Origin: Elusimicrobiota bacterium
GTDB lineage: Bacteria > Elusimicrobiota > Elusimicrobia > UBA1565 > UBA9628
Reading direction: 5' to 3'
Length of the DNA: 64,000 nucleotides
Assembly (NCBI GenBank): GCA_027319565.1
Contig: DAHVNA010000004.1
Coordinates: 1-64,000 of the forward strand
The notes under the pieces were generated by a model. That model saw only the letters and a program-made list of their open reading frames with translations. It did no database searches and was not told where the DNA came from. Numbering within the stretch: position 1 is the stretch's first letter; the number at the start of each line of letters is the position of its first letter. Shown one piece after another: positions 7,396 through 64,000 of this stretch. A program made the position numbers and the translations under genes.

Positions 7396-7462
7396 AAGCG
7401 GCTCTTAAGCTCTGTTTCAGAGCCTTAAGGGAACTTTTTTCGCCTTCAACCGTAAGAAGGGT

Positions 7463-53632: not shown

Positions 53633-54129
53633 GGGCTCAGACGGTCTTTGAGGACCGCGGCCGTTTGCCGCGCGCGGAAGGTTTTGACGCGGCGAGAAAG
53701 CTCGGCATTCGAGAGAGCGAGAATTTGAGCGGCGAGATGTCCGGCGTTGGCCGCGCCCGGTTCCCCAATCGCGAGCGTCCCGACTGCGACGCCGCGCGGC
53801 ATTTGTGCGATGGATAAAAGTGAGTCAAGCCCTTTGAGGGCTTTAGAAGCCACTGGGACGCCGAGAACCGGGAGAGTGGTTTTTGAAGCGGTCATGCCGG
53901 GTAAATGCGCAGCGCCTCCTGCGCCAGCGATAATGACTTTAATTCCGCGCGCCTCGGCTGTTGCGGCATAACGCATCAGCTTATCCGGCGTGCGGTGAGC
54001 GGAAATAATCGCCGCCTCGTAGGGCACCTCGTAATTTTTTAGAACCGCAGCCGCGGCCTTCATCGTTTTCCAGTCCGATTTTGATCCCATGATGATGGCG
54101 ACGAACGGCGTTTTTTTTAGGCGCTTCAT
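53629..54129 (-). CDS. purE: N5-CAIR mutase
   Basis: [42 protein letters not shown]. Confidence 0.97.
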
Positions 54130-54130
54130 G

Positions 54131-54157
54131 CGAATTCCAGGGACAGCATACTTAATT
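54131..54157 (+). repeat. 27-bp junction repeat CGAATTCCAGGGACAGCATACTTAATT (copy 1)
   Basis: Identical to 58804-58830; one base from the purE start codon. Confidence 0.9.
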
Positions 54158-54208
54158 CAAATCCTTTTCGGCATCAGGAAACGTCATTCTACTATTTTCA
54201 CCGACCAA

Positions 54209-54265
54209 TCTCCCGTGCCACAGAAGATAAATCGCGGGATAGGCGAGAAGCTCCAAAATAAAGGA
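54209..54265 (-). pseudogene. cusA C-terminal remnant (SFILELLAYPAIYLLWHGR)
   Basis: Nearly identical in translation to the end of the intact CusA (SFILELLVYPAIYLLWHGR). Confidence 0.85.
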
Positions 54266-54333
54266 TCTCAAAAAATCGGCGCCCATTGTTGTTTGTGGAT
54301 GCGGGCGTTTTGCCGCCCCGCAACGGCACACTT

Positions 54334-54630
54334 TCATTTAATCTTTGGACCCCGCAGTTGTCCATCGATCAATTTAAGCAGTTGGTGGATTTGACTTCGT
54401 TTTTCGATAGGATGGCGGAGGTGCCGATCCGGATCAACGCGATAGCGATTTCGCCTTCCCTCTTTGATGACCGACAGATAGCCGCCCTCAATTAAGTCGG
54501 AGACGATGCGCTGTGTAGCTCGTTCGGTGATCCCAATGGCACGGGCCACGTCCTTGAGCCTAACGGCGGGGTCTGAGGCGATACAAAGAAGCGCGTGTCC
54601 ATGATTGGTAAGAAATGTCCATGCTTTCAT
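54334..54630 (-). CDS. Winged-helix transcriptional regulator (WTFLTNH subfamily)
   Basis: WTFLTNHGH.LL.I, DVA..IGITERATQRIVSDL...GY, GRRNRY. Confidence 0.9.
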   Translation of the reverse strand: MKAWTFLTNHGHALLCIASDPAVRLKDVARAIGITERATQRIVSDLIEGGYLSVIKEGRRNRYRVDPDRHLRHPIEKRSQIHQLLKLIDGQLRGPKIK

Positions 54631-54746
54631 TATAAGATTGTGTCATAAAACAAGCCGCACAAAAAATTTATTTTGCGGCCGATCGTATTATAACGTCAAA
54701 TTAACATCTCTGCGGGGCGGCGCCTGCCCGTCTTATAAATAGGACA

Positions 54747-54775
54747 TTTAAAACACGATAATATTATCGTATAAT
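54747..54775 (+). promoter_or_regulatory. icd promoter (TTTAAA-17-TATAAT) with a perfect 16-bp palindromic operator ACGATAATATTATCGT
   Basis: Palindrome at 54755-54770 fills the spacer and touches the -10; divergent from the wHTH gene. Confidence 0.75.
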
Positions 54776-54799
54776 AGCTGGAGTCTAAAGGAGGACACA

Positions 54800-56260
54800 T
54801 TGAATAACAAAACGCCTATCACCATCGCCTACGGAGACGGAGTCGGCCCGGAAATTATGGAGGCCACTCTTCGAATACTAGAGGCTGCCGGAGCGCTCCT
54901 TGAACCGGAGCGAATTCAGATCGGAAAGGAAGTTTATTCGCGGGGTTTTTCCGCGGGCATCGAGCCTTCTGCCTGGGAGTCTTTGCGGCGCACGAGGATT
55001 TTTCTTAAAGCTCCCATTATGACACCGCAAGGCGGAGGCTTTAAAAGTCTCAACGTGACCATTCGTAAGACCCTGGGCTTGTATGCCAATGTGCGCCCTT
55101 GCGCGGCGTACGCGCCGTTTGTCAGCACCCGGCATCCGCTAATGGATGTGGTGATAATTCGCGAAAACGAGGAGGACCTTTACGCAGGCATTGAGCACAG
55201 ACAGACCGACGAGGTGATTCAATGCCTGAAGCTCATCACGCGGCCGGGCTGCGAGAGAATTATACGATACGCCTTTGAATATGCGAGTTCCCATCATCGC
55301 TCGAAGGTGACCTGCATGACCAAGGACAACATAATGAAACTTACCGATGGATTGTTTCACGAAGTGTTCGGGGAAATCGCGGCGCAATATCCCGCCATCA
55401 AGAGCGAGCATATGATTGTGGATATCGGCGCGGCGCGGCTGGCTGATTCTCCCGAGCAGTTCGATGTCTTGGTTCTTCCAAACCTCTACGGCGACATTCT
55501 CTCGGACATCGCCGCCCAGATATCGGGCTCCGTGGGACTGGCGCCGTCGAGCAACATCGGCGAGAATGGAGCGATGTATGAAGCGATTCATGGATCGGCG
55601 CCGGACATTGCGGGGCGGGACCTTGCCAATCCTTCCGGACTATTGCTTTCTTCCGTGATGATGTTGGTTGATATCGGGCAACCGAAGGTCGCGGAGCGCA
55701 TTCATAACGCGTGGTTGAAAACCATTGAGGATGGAGTTCATACCGGGGATATGTTTACCGAAGGCCTAAGCGTTTGTCGAGTCGGCACGCGCGACTTTAC
55801 CAACGCAGTCATTGAGCGGCTGGGAGCGCTTCCCGAAAGACTCAAGGTTGCGAATTATTCAACCTTCGCCCCCTCCCGTTCCGCGCTCGCGGGAAAAAAA
55901 TGGGAACGTCAAGCGCCGCTGCGGAAAGATTTAGTAGGAGTGGACGTGTTTGTTCACTGGCGCAATGGCGCCCCGAACGATCTTGGAAAACTCCTGAACC
56001 AGGCGAGTAACGACGCCTTGAAACTCATCATGATCACCAATCGCGGGGTGAAGGTCTGGCCGGATGGGTTTCCGGAGACTTTCTGCACCGATCATTGGCG
56101 ATGCAGATTTGTTTCTCCGCAAAATGGGAAGAGCATCTCTCATCGTGATATCATCGGCCTGCTTGAGCGAGTCGAAAAGAGCGGACTAGATTTCATCAAA
56201 ACTGAGAATTTGTGTAATTTCGACGGCAAGCCTGGCTATTCATTGGGTCAAGGCCAATGA
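54800..56260 (+). CDS. icd: NADP-dependent isocitrate dehydrogenase (long form with C-terminal extension)
   Basis: GDGVGPEIM, LKAPI.TPQGGGFKSLNVTIRK, RENEEDLY, KDNIMK.TDG, NLYGDILSD, EAIHGSAPDIAG, C-terminal TFCTDHWRCRF; AAGGAGG RBS, TTG start. Confidence 0.93.
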   Translation: MNNKTPITIAYGDGVGPEIMEATLRILEAAGALLEPERIQIGKEVYSRGFSAGIEPSAWESLRRTRIFLKAPIMTPQGGGFKSLNVTIRKTLGLYANVRPCAAYAPFVSTRHPLMDVVIIRENEEDLYAGIEHRQTDEVIQCLKLITRPGCERIIRYAFEYASSHHRSKVTCMTKDNIMKLTDGLFHEVFGEIAAQYPAIKSEHMIVDIGAARLADSPEQFDVLVLPNLYGDILSDIAAQISGSVGLAPSSNIGENGAMYEAIHGSAPDIAGRDLANPSGLLLSSVMMLVDIGQPKVAERIHNAWLKTIEDGVHTGDMFTEGLSVCRVGTRDFTNAVIERLGALPERLKVANYSTFAPSRSALAGKKWERQAPLRKDLVGVDVFVHWRNGAPNDLGKLLNQASNDALKLIMITNRGVKVWPDGFPETFCTDHWRCRFVSPQNGKSISHRDIIGLLERVEKSGLDFIKTENLCNFDGKPGYSLGQGQ

Positions 56261-57120
56261 GAGAAAAAATCGGTCCTTATAATAAGCGAACCATTGCGCT
56301 CGCGACGAAACATCAAAAGCAGGAGGCGATAGCTCCCTCTTTCCAGCGGATCCTTGGAGCGTCCATCACAGTTCCGAAGGGAATTGATACCGACTTGTTC
56401 GGAACTTTTTCCGGTGAAATTGAGCGTGAGGGAACGATGTTGGAAACCGCTAGAAAGAAGGCGAGGTTGGCGATTAAAGTCAGCGGACTGCCCTTTGGGC
56501 TCGCTAGCGAAGGCAGCTTTGGGCCAGACCCTTCCTGTCCTCTTTTCCCGTGTGGAATAGAGTTGATTGTTTTTATTGATGACGAAAGAAAGATCGAAGT
56601 TGTGGAAAGTGACTTGACTGAAGAAACAAATTTCAGTTCCATAACGGCCGTTTCGGCCCGAGAGATCCATGATTTCTTGGAACACGTGCGTTTTCCTTCT
56701 CATCGCCTTGTTGTGTCGCCTGAGGGTAAAATGGATTTGAGTCTTTTGAAAAAAGGGATCGGTCGATTTTCTGAACTTGAGGAAGCTATTCAGGCCGCCG
56801 CTCGCGGATCTCCGACGGGAAAGGCGCTCATTGTGGCGGATATGCGCGCTCATATGAATCCGACTCGTATGGTTTGTCTCGAAAAATTGGCGGAAAAACT
56901 CGCTCGGCGTTTGGCTTCGCCCTGTCCCGTTTGCGGGGCTCCGGGGTGGGGGAGTGTCGGCGTTATCAAAGGGCTTCCCTGCGAGTCTTGCGGCTCTGAG
57001 ACAGAACTCGTCGTCCAAGAAATTTATGGCTGCGCCTCTTGCGCAACTCGCGAGAGTAAACCGCGTGGTGATGGGAAGATGTTCGCGGATCCAGGCGAAT
57101 GCCCGCGATGCAACCCTTGA
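56257..57120 (+). CDS. DUF6671-like protein with C-terminal Cys-rich zinc ribbon
   Basis: ATKHQK..AIAP, DTD.FGTFSGEIER, ASEGSFGP, DMRAHMNPTRM, CP.C..PGWG, C..CNP; family name recalled, not searched. Confidence 0.75.
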   Translation: MREKIGPYNKRTIALATKHQKQEAIAPSFQRILGASITVPKGIDTDLFGTFSGEIEREGTMLETARKKARLAIKVSGLPFGLASEGSFGPDPSCPLFPCGIELIVFIDDERKIEVVESDLTEETNFSSITAVSAREIHDFLEHVRFPSHRLVVSPEGKMDLSLLKKGIGRFSELEEAIQAAARGSPTGKALIVADMRAHMNPTRMVCLEKLAEKLARRLASPCPVCGAPGWGSVGVIKGLPCESCGSETELVVQEIYGCASCATRESKPRGDGKMFADPGECPRCNP

Positions 57121-58100
57121 GTCCGGGGGCGATCATCCGCGCTGACGCCCGGAACATCCGGCGCGCGGCGGATATCCTGCGCGCTGGCGGGCTTGTCGCG
57201 TTTCCGACCGAAACCGTTTATGGCCTTGGCGCGAGCGCTTTGGACAGCGCGGCCGTTCGCCGGATTTATCATGCTAAGGGCCGTCCCTCTGACAACCCGC
57301 TCATCGTTCATGTTGATGGCGAAGATATGCTTGCGCTTGTTGCCCGCCGCGTGCCGCCGCTTGCGCGGCGTCTGATCGCCGCATTTTGGCCAGGGCCGCT
57401 AACGCTTGTGCTTGAGAAGGCTGAGCGCGTTCCTCTATCCGTTACCGCTGGGTGCCGAACCGTCGCCGTGCGTTGCCCCTCTCACCCGGTCGCGCGGGCG
57501 TTGATTCACGCGCTTGGAGAGCCCATAGCCGCTCCCTCGGCCAATCGATCGGGGCGCCCCAGTCCGACAACCGCCGCGCATGTCGCCAACGATTTAGGTC
57601 AAAGAGTGGCCCTGATACTTGATGGCGGGCCGTGTCGCTTTGGCCTTGAGTCTACGATCATCGATGCACGAGGTCAAAGTCCAGTCTTATTGCGTCCGGG
57701 AGCGTTGTCGCCTGAAGGAATCTCGCGCATTGCCAATGCTCCCTTGGTTTCCTGTGGCCGCGCGGCTCCGCCTTCGCCCGGAACACGCCATCGTCACTAC
57801 GCGCCATTGTGCCACGTCAAGCTCGTCTCTCCCTCAGCCGTGCGCTCCGGTCTTATCCCGGGTTTGGGGCCACGAGACGGCTTGCTTCACTATTCACGCT
57901 GGGGCGGTTTGCGCCCAGCTTTCCTTCCGGCCTTTGTGCAGCGCGTGTCGGCGGGTCCCGCGGCCTATGCGCGCGGCCTTTTCGCCGCTTTGCGCGCCGC
58001 AGAAAAGGCGGAAGTTCAAACGCTGTTTGTCGAGACCTTGCCCGAGCGAGGCATTGGTCGCGCGATTATGGATCGATTGCGCCGCGCGGCCGAACGCTGA
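57099..58100 (+). CDS. sua5: L-threonylcarbamoyladenylate synthase, Sua5 type
   Basis: VAFPTETVYGLGA, AKGRPSDNPLIVH, WPGPLTL, AAPSANRSG.PSPT, GLESTII, SPG...RHYAP, C-terminal SUA5 domain (AIMDRLRRAA). Confidence 0.95.
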   Translation: MPAMQPLSPGAIIRADARNIRRAADILRAGGLVAFPTETVYGLGASALDSAAVRRIYHAKGRPSDNPLIVHVDGEDMLALVARRVPPLARRLIAAFWPGPLTLVLEKAERVPLSVTAGCRTVAVRCPSHPVARALIHALGEPIAAPSANRSGRPSPTTAAHVANDLGQRVALILDGGPCRFGLESTIIDARGQSPVLLRPGALSPEGISRIANAPLVSCGRAAPPSPGTRHRHYAPLCHVKLVSPSAVRSGLIPGLGPRDGLLHYSRWGGLRPAFLPAFVQRVSAGPAAYARGLFAALRAAEKAEVQTLFVETLPERGIGRAIMDRLRRAAER

Positions 58101-58158
58101 CGTTCTCTCAAGAAACTAGGCCAAAGTAAGTTTTGTGTTCTTAGAGATTCCTGGAATT

Positions 58159-58803
58159 TTATTGTCCATCAACATCCCGCCCATGCCATAGAAGATAGAT
58201 CGCGGGATAGACGAGGAGTTCCAGGATAAATGAGGTGAAAAGACCGCCGACCATGGGGGCGGCGATTCGCTTCATGACGTCTGCGCCCGTTCCGGTCGAC
58301 CACATGGCCGGAAGAAGTCCCAGAAACGCGCAAGCGACCGTCATCATTTTTGGGCGCAGACGCTTGGCCGCGCCGTCATGAATCGCTTCTTTAAGATCGG
58401 CTTGCGTGTTAAGACGTCCGGCGGCGGCGCGCGCTTGTTTTTCGAGATTGAGATAGAGAAGCATGAAAATGCCCGTTTCGGCGTCAAGCCCTAAAAGAGC
58501 GATAAACCCTACCCAGACCGCGACGGAGAGATGATATCCCAAGAGCCACAACAGCCAAATCGCTCCGACTGCCGAGAACGGCACCGCGACTAAGACGATT
58601 CCCGCTTCAATCCAGGAGCCTGTGTTAAAGTAGAGAAGCAATACGATCAGCAAAAGAGCGAGCGGGCCGATGATGAGGAGCCTTTTCTCGGCTTTTTTCA
58701 TCTGTTTATACTGTCCGCTCAATTCATAACGATAGCCCGAAGGAAAAGTGACCGATTTCGCAATGGCCGCCTTGGCCTTTTGGACGTAACCCCCGATATC
58801 GGA
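58159..58803 (-). pseudogene. 5'-truncated duplicate of the last ~640 bp of cusA
   Basis: Collinear with 59790-60431, mostly synonymous differences; homology ends exactly at the 27-bp junction repeat. Confidence 0.92.
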
Positions 58804-58830
58804 CGAATTCCAGGGACAGCATACTTAATT
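58804..58830 (+). repeat. 27-bp junction repeat (copy 2)
   Basis: Identical to 54131-54157. Confidence 0.9.
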
Positions 58831-58894
58831 TAAATTCAGATCCCAGGCCCCATAAGATCGGCAATGTCGAGATGAAAATCCCGATGGATGCCAC
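58831..58894 (-). pseudogene. 64-bp internal fragment of a diverged cusA (VASIGIFISTLPILWGLGSEF)
   Basis: Aligns without gaps to 61268-61324 (LLTLPLLWRLGSEF), 42/57 nt identical by hand count. Confidence 0.75.
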
Positions 58895-58952
58895 AATTTC
58901 GGGGACAGACTTAATTCAAAAAATCGGATGAATTAATGATCCCCTGATCCCC
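58895..58952. repeat. Degenerate junction repeat (copy 3) plus a partial inverted copy
   Basis: AATTTCGGGGACAGACTTAATTCAAA (58895-58920), then TGAATTAATGATCCCCTGATCCCC (58929-58952). Confidence 0.65.
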
Positions 58953-59039
58953 ATAGGTCACGGTCTTGGCGCGAAGCGTGCCAGCTGACATAAGAACGCA
59001 AGAGAGAGCGCTTAAAAATATTTTTCGTTTCATTTTCAT
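58911..59039 (-). pseudogene. 5' stub of a secreted protein, cut off by the junction repeat
   Basis: GGAGA RBS; MKMKRKIFLSALSCVLMSAGTLRA signal peptide; the frame runs into the repeat and stops after 42 aa. Confidence 0.6.
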
Positions 59040-59063
59040 GATTTATTCTCCGGTTCAAAATAT

Positions 59064-59492
59064 CTACATGTCCTTAAAAACCTGGGCGCCGCCGAGGCTT
59101 CCTTGATAAATCAAGAGCGCGACCAGGAGCAATCCTAAAAAAAGATAGCCTGCGGCGGGCCGCCGGTTTCGTTTATAGAAATACGCGCGCCAAAGGGCTA
59201 GGGCAGGCACCAGCAGAGCGAGCGAGGTTCCAAGCCACTTGTGGATCATCATCCCCTGCACGCCCACGTCGTCCTTCATCCAAAAGAGCCAGCCTGTCAG
59301 CGCGGTCAAAGGCGTCACGGCGGCGACGTAGAGCATCGTCCACCAGCCGACTTCATTGAAAGATTTCCGCCCCGACCATCTTTCCAGAAAGTCGCTGCCG
59401 ATGGAAACCGGAACCAAGGCCGTCGTGAAATTGACCAGGATCGGATGAATCTTATACTGCATGACCAGATGAGCCAGCATGATTTTTAACAC
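59064..59492 (-). CDS. DUF2231-like membrane protein
   Basis: IHPILVNF, A.TGW, HKWLG, YQG.LGG; AAGGAGG RBS and GTG start. Confidence 0.8.
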   Translation of the reverse strand: MLKIMLAHLVMQYKIHPILVNFTTALVPVSIGSDFLERWSGRKSFNEVGWWTMLYVAAVTPLTALTGWLFWMKDDVGVQGMMIHKWLGTSLALLVPALALWRAYFYKRNRRPAAGYLFLGLLLVALLIYQGSLGGAQVFKDM

Positions 59493-59581
59493 TATTTTTC
59501 CTCCTTATGGTAGCGCCACTTCCAGACGGTGTAGATGGCAGGGTAGCTCAGAAGCTCCATGATGAAGAAAATGAAGTTGCC
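59492..59581 (-). pseudogene. C-terminal remnant of a diverged cusA (GNFIFFIMELLSYPAIYTVWKWRYHKEEK*)
   Basis: Matches GLFTSFILELLVYPAIY of the intact CusA; its TAG overlaps the GTG of the DUF2231 gene. Confidence 0.75.
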
Positions 59582-59604
59582 GAGAGTCATTGATGATCCG
59601 CTCA

Positions 59605-59738
59605 CATCACTCCGGCAATCCCTAAGCCGGAGTCCAGACTCTCAGAAAGCCTACCACTGGCCGCTCCCCAACAGACTTTGGAAGCGGCATTTCCTCGGCT
59701 TATGCCTCGGTCAGATTCCGGCGTTCGCCGGAATGACG
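59605..59738. repeat. REP-like bipartite palindrome enclosing a copy of the cusA leader element
   Basis: CATCACTCCGGC..GCCGGAGTCCAG ... GATTCCGGCGTTCGCCGGAATGAC; interior 59658-59712 matches 63013-63064. Confidence 0.7.
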
Positions 59739-59789
59739 AACCTGAGCAGTTACTTTTCGCGAACAAAATATTTCCCTTGACTTGCGGTG

Positions 59790-62700
59790 CTAATTCCCAA
59801 TATCCCGCCCATGCCACAAAAGATAAATCGCGGGATAGACGAGAAGCTCCAAGATAAATGAGGTGAAAAGTCCGCCGACCATGGGGGCGGCGATTCTTTT
59901 CATGACGTCTGCGCCCGTTCCGGTCGACCACATGGCCGGAAGAAGTCCCAGAAACGCGCAAGCGACCGTCATCATTTTTGGGCGCAGACGCTTGGCCGCG
60001 CCGTCATGGATCGCTTCTTTAAGGTCGGCTTGTGTGTTAAGACGCCCAGCGGCGGCGCGCGCTTTTTTTGCGAGATTGAGATAGAGAAGCATGAAGATGC
60101 CGGTTTCGGCATCAAGTCCTAAAAGAGCGATAAATCCCACCCAAACCGCGACGGAGAGGTGATATCCCAAAATCCACAACAGCCAAATCGCGCCGACGGC
60201 CGAGAACGGCACCGCGACTAAGACGATTCCGGCTTCAATCCAGGAGCCGGTGTTAAAATAAAGAAGCAATACGATCAGAAAAAGAGCGAGCGGGCCGACG
60301 ACGAGAAGTCTTTTCTCGGCTTTTTTCATCTGTTTATACTGTCCGCTAAATTCATAACGATAGCCCGAAGGAAAAGTGACCGATTTCGCAATGGCCGCCT
60401 TGGCCTTTTGGACGTAACCCCCGATATCGGAAGTTTTTAAGTCCACATAGACATATCCTGAGAGTTCGCCGTTTTCATCTCGAATCATGTCAGGTCCCTG
60501 GCGTATGCGAATTTCAGCGATCTCGGCCAATGGAATCTGCTCGTCTTTGGAAACGGGGACCAAAACTTCTCCGATTTTTCTCAAACTGTCTTTAAAGTCC
60601 GGGGCATAGCGCACGTTCACCGGAAAACGATCGCGGCCTTCGATGGTCTTCGTCACGCGCTCGCCTCCTAAGGCGGCGGCGATCATCGAATTTGCGTCAT
60701 CAACTGAAAGCCCGTATCTCGCCAAAGCCCGGCGCTTTAAAATGATGTCGGTGTAATAGCCCTGGGCGGTCCTTTCCGCCACGGCGCGCCTAGTTCCAGG
60801 CACGGAATTAAGAGCTCCTTCGATTTCAGCTCCGAGTTTTTGAATCACGGATAAATTCGGGCCGAAAATTTTAATTCCAACGGGCGTTCGCATTCCGGTT
60901 GAGAGCATATCGATGCGATTTTGTATGGGCTGGGTCCAGATATTGGGATAGCCCGGGATCTTAAGCTTCTGATTCATTTGAGAGATCAGCTGCCTCTGAC
61001 TCAAATGGCATTTCCAGAGTCCGCCGAGACAAGGCGTTGTCGGCCAAAATTTTCGGGGTTTTAAAACGACGGTCGTTTCCATCATGGACAAGGGTGCGGG
61101 ATCGGTCGCGGTTTCGGCGCGGCCAGCCTTGCCGTAAACGGTTTTAACTTCAGGGAAAGATTTGAGGATTTCGTCTTGAATTTGAAGGACCCTCCGGGCT
61201 TCCGTTATCGAGACTCCGGGAAGAGTGGTCGGCATGTAAAGGATGGTTCCCTCGTTGAGCGGAGGCATAAACTCAGATCCCAAGCGCCATAAAAGAGGCA
61301 GAGTCAAAAGGAAAAGCGCGGCGGCCGAGAAAATCGTTCGGCGCGGATTTTCCAAGACCCAGTTGACCACCGGCGAATAAATTTTAAAAAGCCGGCGGCT
61401 GATGGGGTGTTTCTCTTCCGGATAATAGCGTCCGACTAAAATGGCGTCGGCGGCGCGGTTAAGCCAATGCGGCTTAATATTAAATGAGTCCATTCGCGCA
61501 AAAAACATTCGGACTGCGGGGTCTAGGGTCACGGCTAAGACCGCGGCAAGCGTCATCGCGAAAGTTTTTGAATAGGCGAGAGGCTTAAATAACCGGCCTT
61601 CTTGCCCGGTAAGAGCGAAAATCGGAAGAAATGCGGCTGCGATAACGAGAAGCGAGAAAAAAACCGAAGGGCCGACTTCCATTAAAGCTTTGAGGCGCAC
61701 CTCATGAAAATCTCCCTTGCGTCCCTCTTCTTGCCACTCCTCAAGACGCTTGTAGGCATTTTCGACCTCGACAATCGCGCCGTCAACGAGAATTCCAATT
61801 GAGATCGCGATGCCGGAAAGAGACATGATGTTGGTGGTCAGGCCCAAAGCCGCCATCGGGATAAAAGCCAAAAAAACGGAAACCGGAATTGTCAGAATCG
61901 GAACCATGGCCGACGGCGGGTGCCATAAAAAAAGAAGGATCACGAGACTGACGATGAGCATTTCTTCAAAGAGCGTTTCTTTGAGCGTTCCGACGGCTCG
62001 TTTGATAAGACCCGATCGGTCATAGACCGGGATGATGCGAACTCCGGGCGGCAAAGAGGGAGAAATCTCTTTTATTTTTTCTTTGACGCGGTTGATCACA
62101 TTGAGCGCATTTTCTCCGCTGCGAATGATGACGATTCCGCTGACGGCGTCGCCAAGGCCGTTGAATTCCCCGACGCCTCGCCTTCGAGCGGGTCCCAGGC
62201 TGACTGTGGCGATATCTTGAACCAAAACAGGCGTTCCCGTTTCAGGGTCTCGTCCGACAGAAGTTTGCTCGATGTCTTTGATTCCTTTGAGATAACCGCG
62301 CCCTAAAATCATGAATTCTCTTCCCGAAAACTCGATCGTGCCGCCGCCCGCTTCGCTGTTGGATTCTGAAACGGCTTTGAGAACCTTGGTCAGCGAAATG
62401 TGATAGCTCCAGAGAGCGCTGGGATTTATTTTGACCTGATACTCTTTTTCATATCCGCCGATGGACGCCACTTCAGAGACGCCAGGAACGGCTTGAAGCT
62501 GATAGCGAATGTGCCAGTCTTGAAGGGCGCGGAGTTGAGATAAATCCAGCGCTTTTGAATCATCCACCAGCACGTACTGATAGACCCAACCAAGACTGGT
62601 CGCGTCCGGTCCCATTGCGGTTTTCACTCCTTTGGGAAGCTCCGGAATGATTTTGGATAGGTACTCTAAAACGCGCGAACGCGCCCAATAGAGGTCGGTT

Positions 62701-62996
62701 CCGTCCTCAAAAATTACGTAAACTAAAGACACCCCGAATTCATTGATCGCGCGAATCGCCTTAACTTTAGGCGCGCCCAAAAGAGCCGAGACGATCGGAT
62801 AAGTCACCTGGTCTTCCAATACTTCGGGCGATTGATCCCAGTTTGAGGAGACGATTACCTGAGTGTCCGATAAATCCGGTATCGCGTCGAGCGGCATTCT
62901 TTTGACCGTGTAAAAGGCGTAGGCCAAGGCCACGAGAGTCAAAAGAATAACGAGAAATTTATTGCGCGCCGAAAACGAAATGATTTTAGAGATCAT
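59790..62996 (-). CDS. cusA: CusA/CzcA-family heavy-metal efflux RND permease
   Basis: DAIPDLSDTQV, EDQVTYP, YWARSRVLEYL, GPDATSLGWVYQY, NIMSLSGIAISIG..VD, GSEFMPPL.EG.ILYMP, DPAPLSM.ET, RLRPKMMT. Confidence 0.95.
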   Translation of the reverse strand: MISKIISFSARNKFLVILLTLVALAYAFYTVKRMPLDAIPDLSDTQVIVSSNWDQSPEVLEDQVTYPIVSALLGAPKVKAIRAINEFGVSLVYVIFEDGTDLYWARSRVLEYLSKIIPELPKGVKTAMGPDATSLGWVYQYVLVDDSKALDLSQLRALQDWHIRYQLQAVPGVSEVASIGGYEKEYQVKINPSALWSYHISLTKVLKAVSESNSEAGGGTIEFSGREFMILGRGYLKGIKDIEQTSVGRDPETGTPVLVQDIATVSLGPARRRGVGEFNGLGDAVSGIVIIRSGENALNVINRVKEKIKEISPSLPPGVRIIPVYDRSGLIKRAVGTLKETLFEEMLIVSLVILLFLWHPPSAMVPILTIPVSVFLAFIPMAALGLTTNIMSLSGIAISIGILVDGAIVEVENAYKRLEEWQEEGRKGDFHEVRLKALMEVGPSVFFSLLVIAAAFLPIFALTGQEGRLFKPLAYSKTFAMTLAAVLAVTLDPAVRMFFARMDSFNIKPHWLNRAADAILVGRYYPEEKHPISRRLFKIYSPVVNWVLENPRRTIFSAAALFLLTLPLLWRLGSEFMPPLNEGTILYMPTTLPGVSITEARRVLQIQDEILKSFPEVKTVYGKAGRAETATDPAPLSMMETTVVLKPRKFWPTTPCLGGLWKCHLSQRQLISQMNQKLKIPGYPNIWTQPIQNRIDMLSTGMRTPVGIKIFGPNLSVIQKLGAEIEGALNSVPGTRRAVAERTAQGYYTDIILKRRALARYGLSVDDANSMIAAALGGERVTKTIEGRDRFPVNVRYAPDFKDSLRKIGEVLVPVSKDEQIPLAEIAEIRIRQGPDMIRDENGELSGYVYVDLKTSDIGGYVQKAKAAIAKSVTFPSGYRYEFSGQYKQMKKAEKRLLVVGPLALFLIVLLLYFNTGSWIEAGIVLVAVPFSAVGAIWLLWILGYHLSVAVWVGFIALLGLDAETGIFMLLYLNLAKKARAAAGRLNTQADLKEAIHDGAAKRLRPKMMTVACAFLGLLPAMWSTGTGADVMKRIAAPMVGGLFTSFILELLVYPAIYLLWHGRDIGN

Positions 62997-63101
62997 AGTT
63001 TGATTCCTCTGTGGCCGCTCTCCAACAGACTTGGAAGCGGCACTTCCTCGCCCATGCTCGGTCGGAACATTCTTGCGGCTTTTGCCGTATCAAAGGTGTA
63101 G

Positions 63102-63175
63102 GCCTCGCTAGCTCAACTGGATAGAGCGCACCGCTGACTACGGGGGAGATTCGGGTTCGAATCCCGAGCGGGGCA
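63102..63175 (+). tRNA. tRNA-like RNA / pseudo-tRNA (Arg-like body, aberrant anticodon arm)
   Basis: Acceptor GCCTCGC/GCGGGGC, D arm GCTC-AACTGGATA-GAGC, T arm TCGGG-TTCGAAT-CCCGA; anticodon arm CACCG-CTGACTA-CGGGG has an A.G mismatch and a pyrimidine at 37; no encoded CCA. Confidence 0.75.
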
Positions 63176-63236
63176 TATGCCGGTTTCCGGCGGATAGCGA
63201 CTTTCCCTCCAAAGTCAGCGGTCGTTGTCCATCCCC

Positions 63237-63266
63237 TTGACAAACATGCATAAGAGGGCTTACAAT
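63237..63266 (+). promoter_or_regulatory. Sigma70-type promoter TTGACA-N18-TACAAT
   Basis: Near-consensus hexamers about 80 nt upstream of a strong terminator T tract. Confidence 0.75.
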
Positions 63267-63271
63267 AAAGC

Positions 63272-63349
63272 GTAGGCGGTGTGCTCCGAGTTAGCGGAGT
63301 CTTCCCCGTAGTCAAAGCGGCGTCCACAAAGGCGCCGCTTTCTTTTTTT
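63272..63349 (+). ncRNA. Putative ~78-nt small RNA / attenuated leader complementary to the tRNA-like RNA
   Basis: Bounded by the promoter and terminator; internal hairpin CTCCG-AGTTAG-CGGAG; two segments antisense to 63124-63149. Confidence 0.6.
63314..63349 (+). terminator. Rho-independent terminator
   Basis: AAAGCGGCGTC-CACAAA-GGCGCCGCTTT followed by CTTTTTTT. Confidence 0.85.
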
Positions 63350-63371
63350 CCAGGGGTGCGGTTGATTTTTA

Positions 63372-64000
63372 TCACATCTTCATCCCGGGCATGGAGCCCA
63401 TTGAATCCGAGGGAGCGGCGTTTTTGGAGTCTTTGCCCGGTTGAGCGAATGATTGGATCGCGGATTGAAATTGAGATTCCGCGTCGATTAAAAAATTAGC
63501 CGAAGTCGTTACCGTTTCTCCGGGACTTAAACCCGATAAAATTTCGTAATAGCCCCCGGCTTTTGTTCCTAACTGGATTGATCTCGGATCAAGAGTCCCG
63601 TCTTCCCTAGCCACAAAAACGTATTGTTTCTCCCCGGTGTTTAAAACCGCGCCTTCCGGCACGCTCAAATGCTCTCCCAGCGGAGATTGAATTGTGACAT
63701 CCACATAGGTTCCGGGTTTGAGCAGTCCCAAGGCATCATCCAGCCGGGCTCTGACGCGCGCGGTTCGAGTGGTGGGGTTGATCACTGGATCTATTGAAAG
63801 GACATTTGTCGTCCAGACTTTTCCCGGGAGAGTTTGGGATTTAATCTTCACGGGAATTCCCGGATGAATGAATTGCAGGTCATATTCATAAACATCCGCA
63901 TAGACCCATACCGCCTGTCCGCGTTTTCCCACTAAAAGCCCTTGAGCGAGACTCGGATTCTTGACCCAGGCGGAAACCTGAGCGGGAGACAAACCTAAGA
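63372..64000 (-). CDS. cusB: CusB-type RND periplasmic adaptor (5' end lies beyond the window)
   Basis: VWVYADVYEYDL, IDPVINPTTRT.RVR, LKPG.YVDV, L.VP..AVL.TG, GL..GE.V..SANFLID.ES, Met-rich tail. Confidence 0.9.
   Translation of the reverse strand, partial: LGLSPAQVSAWVKNPSLAQGLLVGKRGQAVWVYADVYEYDLQFIHPGIPVKIKSQTLPGKVWTTNVLSIDPVINPTTRTARVRARLDDALGLLKPGTYVDVTIQSPLGEHLSVPEGAVLNTGEKQYVFVAREDGTLDPRSIQLGTKAGGYYEILSGLSPGETVTTSANFLIDAESQFQSAIQSFAQPGKDSKNAAPSDSMGSMPGMKM

Follow-up and report, generated by a model that had tools for sequence, protein, structure and literature searches.

The toxin-antitoxin (TA) loci tisB/istR-1 and hok/sok, which are of type I, combine a stress-induced toxin gene with a constitutive antisense RNA and an inhibitory 3′ fold-back in the precursor. 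In type VIII systems, as classified in TADB 3.0, toxin and antitoxin are both RNAs, encoded on the same or on opposite strands (PMC10767807). The tRNAs ProA, ProN and ProT of Streptomyces and Kitasatospora carry the body of one amino acid and the anticodon of another, and natural dual-identity tRNAs are reported to be toxic in Escherichia coli (PMC10404621). Finally, the CI RNA of phage P4 and the C4 RNA of phages P1 and P7 have been described as processed small RNAs with split complementary sites nearby (PMC4825925, PMC2864571). Here, we analyse a locus of an Elusimicrobiota bacterium at which a tRNA gene is followed by the gene of a small RNA antisense to it (assembly GCA_027319565.1, contig DAHVNA010000004.1; ‘the window’ is the whole analysed stretch, positions 1 to 64,000). 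This tRNA/antisense element is real, conserved and co-evolving. Its layout, the cognate pairing, the co-evolution of the two RNAs and the mismatch between tRNA body and anticodon are directly supported. Judging from sequence, we cautiously favour the view that it is an RNA-only TA-like module, in which a stress-induced miscoding tRNA would be the toxin and a constitutive antisense RNA the antitoxin.

The unit runs from an extracytoplasmic function (ECF)-type promoter through the tRNA, a self-complementary trailer, a sigma-70 promoter and an antisense RNA of ∼75 nt to a terminator (Table 1). The tRNA gene, the sigma-70 promoter and the terminator are on the plus strand of the window, and the flanking cusB-like and cusA-like genes on the minus strand, the former convergent with the antisense RNA. 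The original prediction had matched two segments of the small RNA to the anticodon arm of the tRNA, and both duplexes are present in the sequence: 63124-63134 pairs with 63276-63286 (11 bp with one G.U, extending to 12), and 63135-63149 pairs with 63300-63314 (15 bp with one G.U), part of a helix of 18 bp between 63135-63152 and 63297-63314. The ten Watson-Crick pairs predicted between a trailer site (63213-63222) and 63130-63139 are there as well, and the promoter and the terminator hairpin (63314-63341) were recovered by a scan. A fourth helix had gone unnoticed, formed by the hairpin loop 63288-63297 of the small RNA with 63105-63114 of the tRNA (10 bp, two G.U). The antisense segments match, in permuted order, tRNA positions 22-33, 4-13 and 33-50, with a total cover of 4-13 and 22-50; pairing of this extent would open the D and anticodon arms of the tRNA. 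Within the precursor, the 11-bp hairpin of the trailer holds a 17-nt loop region complementary to each of the two anticodon-stem strands, and the trailer-paired fold of the window precursor lies 6.8 kcal/mol below the forced cloverleaf. The trailer is a candidate cis-inhibitor of the tRNA precursor.

In 1000 dinucleotide shuffles, the small RNA never reached the score of 36 seen for the three helices between the two RNAs (mean 7.3, maximum 23.5), and it reached a single 18-bp helix once. Shuffled controls upheld the pairing by the three-helix score and less clearly by nested co-folding energy, which 12 of 500 shuffles matched; the latter is the weaker test, as the permuted helices cannot all be accommodated in one nested fold. 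Among the 45 tRNA genes of the genome, the window tRNA and its paralogue are the only ones with a perfect antisense run of at least 10 nt within 300 nt, and each small RNA binds its own partner best among these 45. The two paralogues do not cross-react in silico, with cognate values of -11.6 and -16.1 against crossed values of -1.8 and -3.6.

The unit is present at dozens of loci within a single Elusimicrobiota order, and on a few viral contigs. BLAST, a covariance model and pattern searches brought up the paralogue (contig C43) and homologues in relatives; the covariance model (R1) was limited to 37 scored candidates per genome, so that counts from it are minimum values. Thirty units were curated by hand, on the criterion of a tRNA with a downstream promoter: 10 of the class of the window copy (Val class), 12 with Asp anticodons, six with Ser anticodons and two viral. 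Interrupted or truncated units (L085, L092, L094, L151 and the first unit of L141) were left out. In 10 close units, two-sided change was found at 14 of 30 base pairs between the two RNAs, and 92.6% of 299 cells were paired. At most one of 500 shuffles reached these values (0-1), and slid registers were 36-53% paired, in controls that ignore relatedness and take the structure from the window copy. The pairs between trailer and tRNA gave a weaker signal (two-sided change in 7/13). No permutation within subfamilies, out of 20,000, matched the cognate pairs. Two-sided co-variation and cognate specificity together bear out a cognate pair with compensatory changes, which the original prediction had set against a local duplication scar. 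A sigma-70-like promoter precedes the antisense segment in 30/30 curated units, the promoter having been part of the curation.

In L092, L151, the first unit of L141 and L094 (1590-1670), short palindromic insertions break the T arm or variable loop of Asp-class tRNAs, which keep an intact antisense gene; the insertions may inactivate the tRNA. At L167 and L141, a second promoter plus antisense-like segment, without a tRNA of its own, was seen by eye 3′ of the unit.

A promoter-plus-tRNA pattern occurred in nine of 401 genomes of the phylum, all in the same order, and its absence elsewhere may reflect the promoter only. All nine tRNAs with an Arg body but no C35 that were found in 101 genomes sit in units. 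A pattern of A72 with an NUC anticodon matched 33 places in 23 of the 101 genomes. The 30 tRNAs fetched carry GUC (23), CUC (six) or UUC (one); the pattern is able to find NUC only, and so does not show other anticodons to be absent. All but one have a cognate antisense segment (24 by script, together with the promoter, and five by eye), the exception being a half tRNA. The junction between cusB and cusA was compared in six genomes of the genus: it holds the Val-class unit in the window, an Asp-class unit in G001, a Glu-class unit in G002, the antisense gene alone in G003, a terminator-like remnant in G005 and nothing in G004. Units and small operons, the latter including a ParE-type gene, alternate in G004, and ParE-type and HicB-like genes are interspersed with some units.

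The second line of evidence is the mismatch between tRNA body and anticodon. The window tRNA has A20 (63121), the anticodon GAC (63136-63138), U37, an A28.G42 mismatch, a U4.G69 wobble and A73, with no encoded CCA. An ordinary tRNA-Val(GAC) was considered and rejected on account of U37, A28.G42 and A20; the ordinary gene is on contig C58. Throughout the window class, the nearest host body outside the anticodon arm is tRNA-Arg(CCU) (10/10), and the anticodons are GAC (8/10), GGC or AAC, with C36 in 10/10 and U or G at position 37 in 9/10. The six Ser(GCU) units have A20, C35, U36 and A73 and no long arm, which is the arginine identity set as given in PMC9976931. U1-A72 and G73 are found in all 12 curated Asp-class units, with tRNA-Asn or tRNA-Thr as the nearest host bodies; this combination is present in host tRNA-Asn and tRNA-Gln and absent from host tRNA-Asp and tRNA-Glu. 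U1-A72 is described as the GatCAB signal that specifies amidation, which G1-C72 together with U20a prevents (PMC9976931). Seven of the 30 fetched U1-A72 units have Glu anticodons. The host genome (92% complete) has gatB, and no asnS or glnS over the cut-off. Going by known identity determinants, the predicted outcomes are asparagine at Asp codons, glutamine at Glu codons and arginine at Ser codons. Body and anticodon carry determinants of different amino acids in the Asp, Glu and Ser classes; Val-class tRNAs have an Arg-type body with A20 and are without C35.

For the window tRNA, the result would probably be arginine at Val GUY codons or a frameshift, and the amino acid it carries is the least certain step of the miscoding reading. 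For arginine to enter at Val codons, arginyl-tRNA synthetase (ArgRS) would have to recognise C36-U37 instead of C35-U36. A suppressor experiment is said to have revealed such a shifted reading by ArgRS, and forms the basis of this idea beside the counts of C36 and U/G37. A wobble of the U4.G69 type has been described to impair valyl-tRNA synthetase (ValRS) of E. coli (PMC9976931), and could help arginine charging of the window tRNA. In the same genome, CGY codons are read by tRNA-Arg(GCG) (G000:C42:16407), with no tRNA-Arg(ACG) called; no tRNA-Ile(GAU) was called either, the gene being probably unassembled.

Nearly all Elusimicrobiota units have the promoter motif GGAAC-N17-CGTA in front of them. 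A matrix derived from 36 such motifs at other loci gives the window site 19.5 bits and finds 25 matches of at least 15 bits in this genome, against 5-7 in shuffles; the motif by itself is only modestly enriched (15 against 9-20). The matrix ranks recA, named from its sequence, first and an ECF sigma gene second, and a comF-like gene, a RhuM gene and two integrases are also among its top 11. The genome, at 92% completeness, yielded no lexA. The tRNA promoter may belong to a DNA-damage or general stress regulon, possibly an ECF-driven and LexA-independent damage regulon with recA, the ECF sigma, comF-like and RhuM genes and the integrases. Sites of the form GGAAC-N16/17-CGTA precede these genes, at G000:C25:21869, C30:6420, 7428-7460 of the window, C31:5792, C46:4143 and C31:10229; the ECF sigma gene is on contig C30.

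In viral units, the antisense gene lies downstream, upstream or convergent relative to the tRNA, and two such units adjoin replication/RecT genes and an integrase. Among viral tRNAs that combine an Arg body with a Val or Ser anticodon, a perfect antisense run (10-16 nt) accompanies 5/13 with an intact acceptor stem and 0/19 with a broken one (Fisher 0.006, kin not being independent). Viral scans with the small-RNA motif (4 contigs) and with a short promoter pattern (22 contigs) gave matches without a tRNA. The U1-A72/Asp pattern matched no viral contig, and none of the seven viral contigs with the NUC/GCA pattern has a perfect 9-nt antisense. Among PLSDB plasmids there was one match, at the tRNA level, and among INPHARED phages none. 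Several viral tRNA-like groups (L174, L175, L179, L185, L186, L188, L189, L196, L222, L229 and L230) have unpaired acceptor stems, an Arg-type D loop, NAC-UA or GCU loops and their own promoter or terminator, with no nearby antisense; they are perhaps decoys or decayed toxins. In L225, L235 and L245, hairpins that resemble opposite-strand terminators lie upstream of intact viral tRNAs with an Arg body and a Ser anticodon, and a fully overlapping antisense transcript is possible.

We propose that the antisense RNA would be made constantly from its sigma-70 promoter and would open the D and anticodon arms of the mature tRNA, so that the latter could not decode, with the trailer slowing maturation of the precursor. 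Once the ECF sigma factor that may also serve recA became active, probably on DNA damage, the tRNA would exceed the antisense RNA. Free tRNA would then be charged according to its body and read codons of another amino acid: asparagine would enter at Asp codons and glutamine at Glu codons, by way of a non-discriminating synthetase and GatCAB, and arginine at Ser AGY codons, besides the outcomes suggested above for the window copy. The ensuing proteome damage could slow or kill the cell, and thereby serve dormancy, abortive defence or the unit's own selfish persistence. The broader claim, that there is a widespread family of RNA-only TA modules with re-addressed tRNA toxins able to change the genetic code when required (Asp to Asn, Glu to Gln, Ser to Arg, Val to Arg or frameshift), private co-evolving antisense locks, ECF-driven LexA-independent release on DNA damage and the same design in temperate phages from other lineages, seems to us evenly poised.

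Several points weigh against this proposal. A35, C36 and A73 are the main ValRS determinants; the window class, which is the weakest of the classes, is without C35 and the window copy has the ValRS set, so the window tRNA could be a plain valine decoder. Host tRNA-Val(GAC) also has C3-G70 and C4-G69. C33 (3/10), a pyrimidine at position 37 (6/10) and stem mismatches (5/10) may hinder decoding in the window class. Asp-class tRNAs have A38, not the determinant C38, and A73 is found in 4/23. Nested energy ranks the cognate partner first for only 14/30 tRNAs and 19/30 small RNAs, and the helix score does so for 18/30 and 21/30. The trailer-paired fold is preferred in only 7/21 precursors, and the promoter motif stands before recA, within 300 nt, in only 2/5 relatives. 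Of the 13 intact viral mismatched tRNAs, eight lack a perfect 10-nt antisense nearby, which limits the claim of coupling, and no mobility gene travels with the unit.

The same miscoding could also serve regulated adaptive mistranslation, that is, mild and threshold-controlled protein variation under stress with no growth arrest. We regard this as possible but unlikely, since the patchy presence of the unit, its fast replacement at one junction, the tandem diverged copies with private specificity and the type II TA neighbours look more like addiction or defence than like core physiology. More doubtful still is a role without miscoding, in which an antisense-gated tRNA would be a mimic or back-up, such as an uncharged ligand of the ribosome or RelA, a synthetase inhibitor or a nuclease-resistant spare that carries the amino acid proper to its anticodon. 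The non-canonical loops, stem mismatches and mixed discriminators (A, C or G) of the window class would suit such a role, as would the ValRS determinants of the window copy. However, canonical loops are retained in the Asp, Glu and Ser classes, along with the exact determinants of a different amino acid, a harmless spare would need no private silencer, and the acceptor stem is often broken in viral copies that lack an antisense.

The direction of the interaction is where our reading departs from the original prediction, in which the tRNA-like RNA, by analogy with C4 and CI, acts on the promoter-terminator leader and controls termination or read-through. A processed-looking RNA with bipartite nearby targets does recall seqA and seqC of P4 CI (PMC4825925), and the proposed extension of the second helix into the terminator arm is possible (4-5 bp in the window, and by eye in relatives). 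This extension is worth 7.4 kcal/mol, against 17.9 for the hairpin and 22.7 for a competing helix that uses the same tRNA bases, and the pair probabilities of the terminator were unchanged when the tRNA was added in a nested model. Among 17 distinct first downstream open reading frames (ORFs) with a Pfam match, 15 lie on the opposite strand and the two on the same strand are at distances of 114 and 401 nt; by eye, small ORFs on the same strand, with promoters of their own, come after three units. With most downstream genes convergent, the attenuator reading does not hold, and the roles seem to be the other way round, with the small RNA as silencer of the tRNA, which is the likely effector. Furthermore, antisense RNAs of the Asp class pair for the most part 5′ of the terminator, some viral units have an inverted or convergent layout, and an Rfam scan (E up to 10) gave no match to C4, c4-a1b1 or T-box. 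A T-box riboswitch was also rejected for want of a downstream amino-acid gene. A C4/CI-like switch is improbable on this evidence.

It is just as improbable that the small RNA is the effector, directed against host tRNAs or mRNAs, with the tRNA-like RNA as a stress-induced sponge. The small RNA has a strong constitutive promoter, orphan small RNAs exist, and CreT has been described as an RNA toxin that acts on tRNA supply. Among tRNAs, however, which are the comparison made here, each small RNA prefers its own partner, and on this ground host tRNAs were rejected as its target; its sequence tracks that partner and no fixed host target. A decaying tRNA pseudogene with local inverted-duplication scars is hardly credible, despite the adjoining repeat and the existence of degenerate copies, given the conserved promoters and terminator at dozens of loci and the two-sided co-variation, which refutes it unless the alignments are wrong.

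Table 1. Features of the tRNA/antisense locus and its flanks (window coordinates).
Feature	Position	Strand	Basis
ECF-type promoter motif GGAAC-N17-CGTA for the tRNA	63064..63091	+	Motif conservation; putative function
tRNA, Arg-type body, anticodon GAC	63102..63175	+	ARAGORN; Rfam tRNA 48.8 bits
tRNA 3′ trailer: small hairpin and 11-bp hairpin	63176..63236	+	Fold z -4.1
Sigma-70 promoter TTGACA-N18-TACAAT for the antisense RNA	63237..63266	+	Scan, 11/12 consensus
Antisense RNA of ∼75 nt, permuted segments	63272..63349	+	Putative start, from promoter
Intrinsic terminator of the antisense RNA	63314..63349	+	11 pairs, 7 G-C, U tail
Dispersed repetitive extragenic palindromic (REP)-like repeat, adjoining and outside the conserved unit	63012..63066	+	Many copies in genome and genus
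cusA-like resistance-nodulation-division (RND) transporter gene (flank)	59790..62996	-	ORF; PF00873
cusB-like membrane fusion gene, 3′ part (flank)	63372..64000	-	ORF; PF16576, PF19335

At this locus, only the tRNA family (RF00005) passes the Rfam threshold, with none for the antisense RNA, and no conserved ORF was seen in the unit. A peptide toxin was rejected, as the only frame has 10 codons and leaves no room for a ribosome-binding site. A minus-strand ORF of 129 codons (62986-63375) runs from the cusB stop to the cusA start with the whole unit inside, and was treated as a shadow frame. Three metatranscriptome contig sets searched with 54000-64000 gave only short, diverged pieces, uninformative either way on expression. 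The REP-like repeat (∼55 nt) recurs at 59658-59715 of the window, on many contigs and in many copies across the genus. Downstream of the full cusA, on the minus strand, there are two partial extra copies of its C-terminal coding region (58159-58722 and 54152-54337).

If the proposed module is confirmed, a tRNA gene itself can be a toxin, which would be a class of toxin new to TA biology, and cells or phages could turn a codon reassignment on or off by means of a 300-nt cassette. Programmed mistranslation in bacteria would become directly testable with matched on/off pairs, and the orthogonal tRNA/antisense pairs are possible switches for synthetic biology. A literature search, mostly at the level of titles and abstracts and without supplements, brought up no miscoding tRNA with a cognate antisense RNA; the unit would be the first antisense control of a specific tRNA in the literature searched. 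Annotation tools label such genes as ordinary tRNA-Val, -Asp, -Glu or -Ser, and the class may therefore be widely overlooked.

How, then, does the unit relate to the systems already described? With C4 and CI RNAs it shares only the split nearby targets; in contrast to them, its tRNA body is a true one that carries synthetase determinants, it has no downstream operon that could be attenuated, and it has no Rfam match. Processing by RNase P would be compatible with its intact acceptor and T arms. It differs from tisB/istR-1 and hok/sok in having no peptide, a structured tRNA as the target and an ECF-type motif, with no lexA found. Type VIII systems such as CreTA and SdsR-RyeA are closer: there are two adjacent RNA genes and no protein, and the antitoxin is specific, in silico, for its cognate partner. 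In contrast to these, the proposed toxin is a tRNA, the pairing is direct and in permuted segments, the antisense RNA does not overlap the toxin gene and there is no CRISPR-Cas; Rfam gave no homology to CreTA or SdsR-RyeA, and no CRISPR gene was seen among the flanking ORFs scanned. The tRNAProX group is the other near relation, and differs in that the bodies here are of Arg and Asn/Gln type, not Pro, and that the unit has its own antisense RNA and a stress-type promoter; membership was rejected on the nearest body, tRNA-Arg(CCU), and on the flanks, which hold no synthetase. The unit works like a union of a type VIII system and tRNAProX, and is a member of neither named family.
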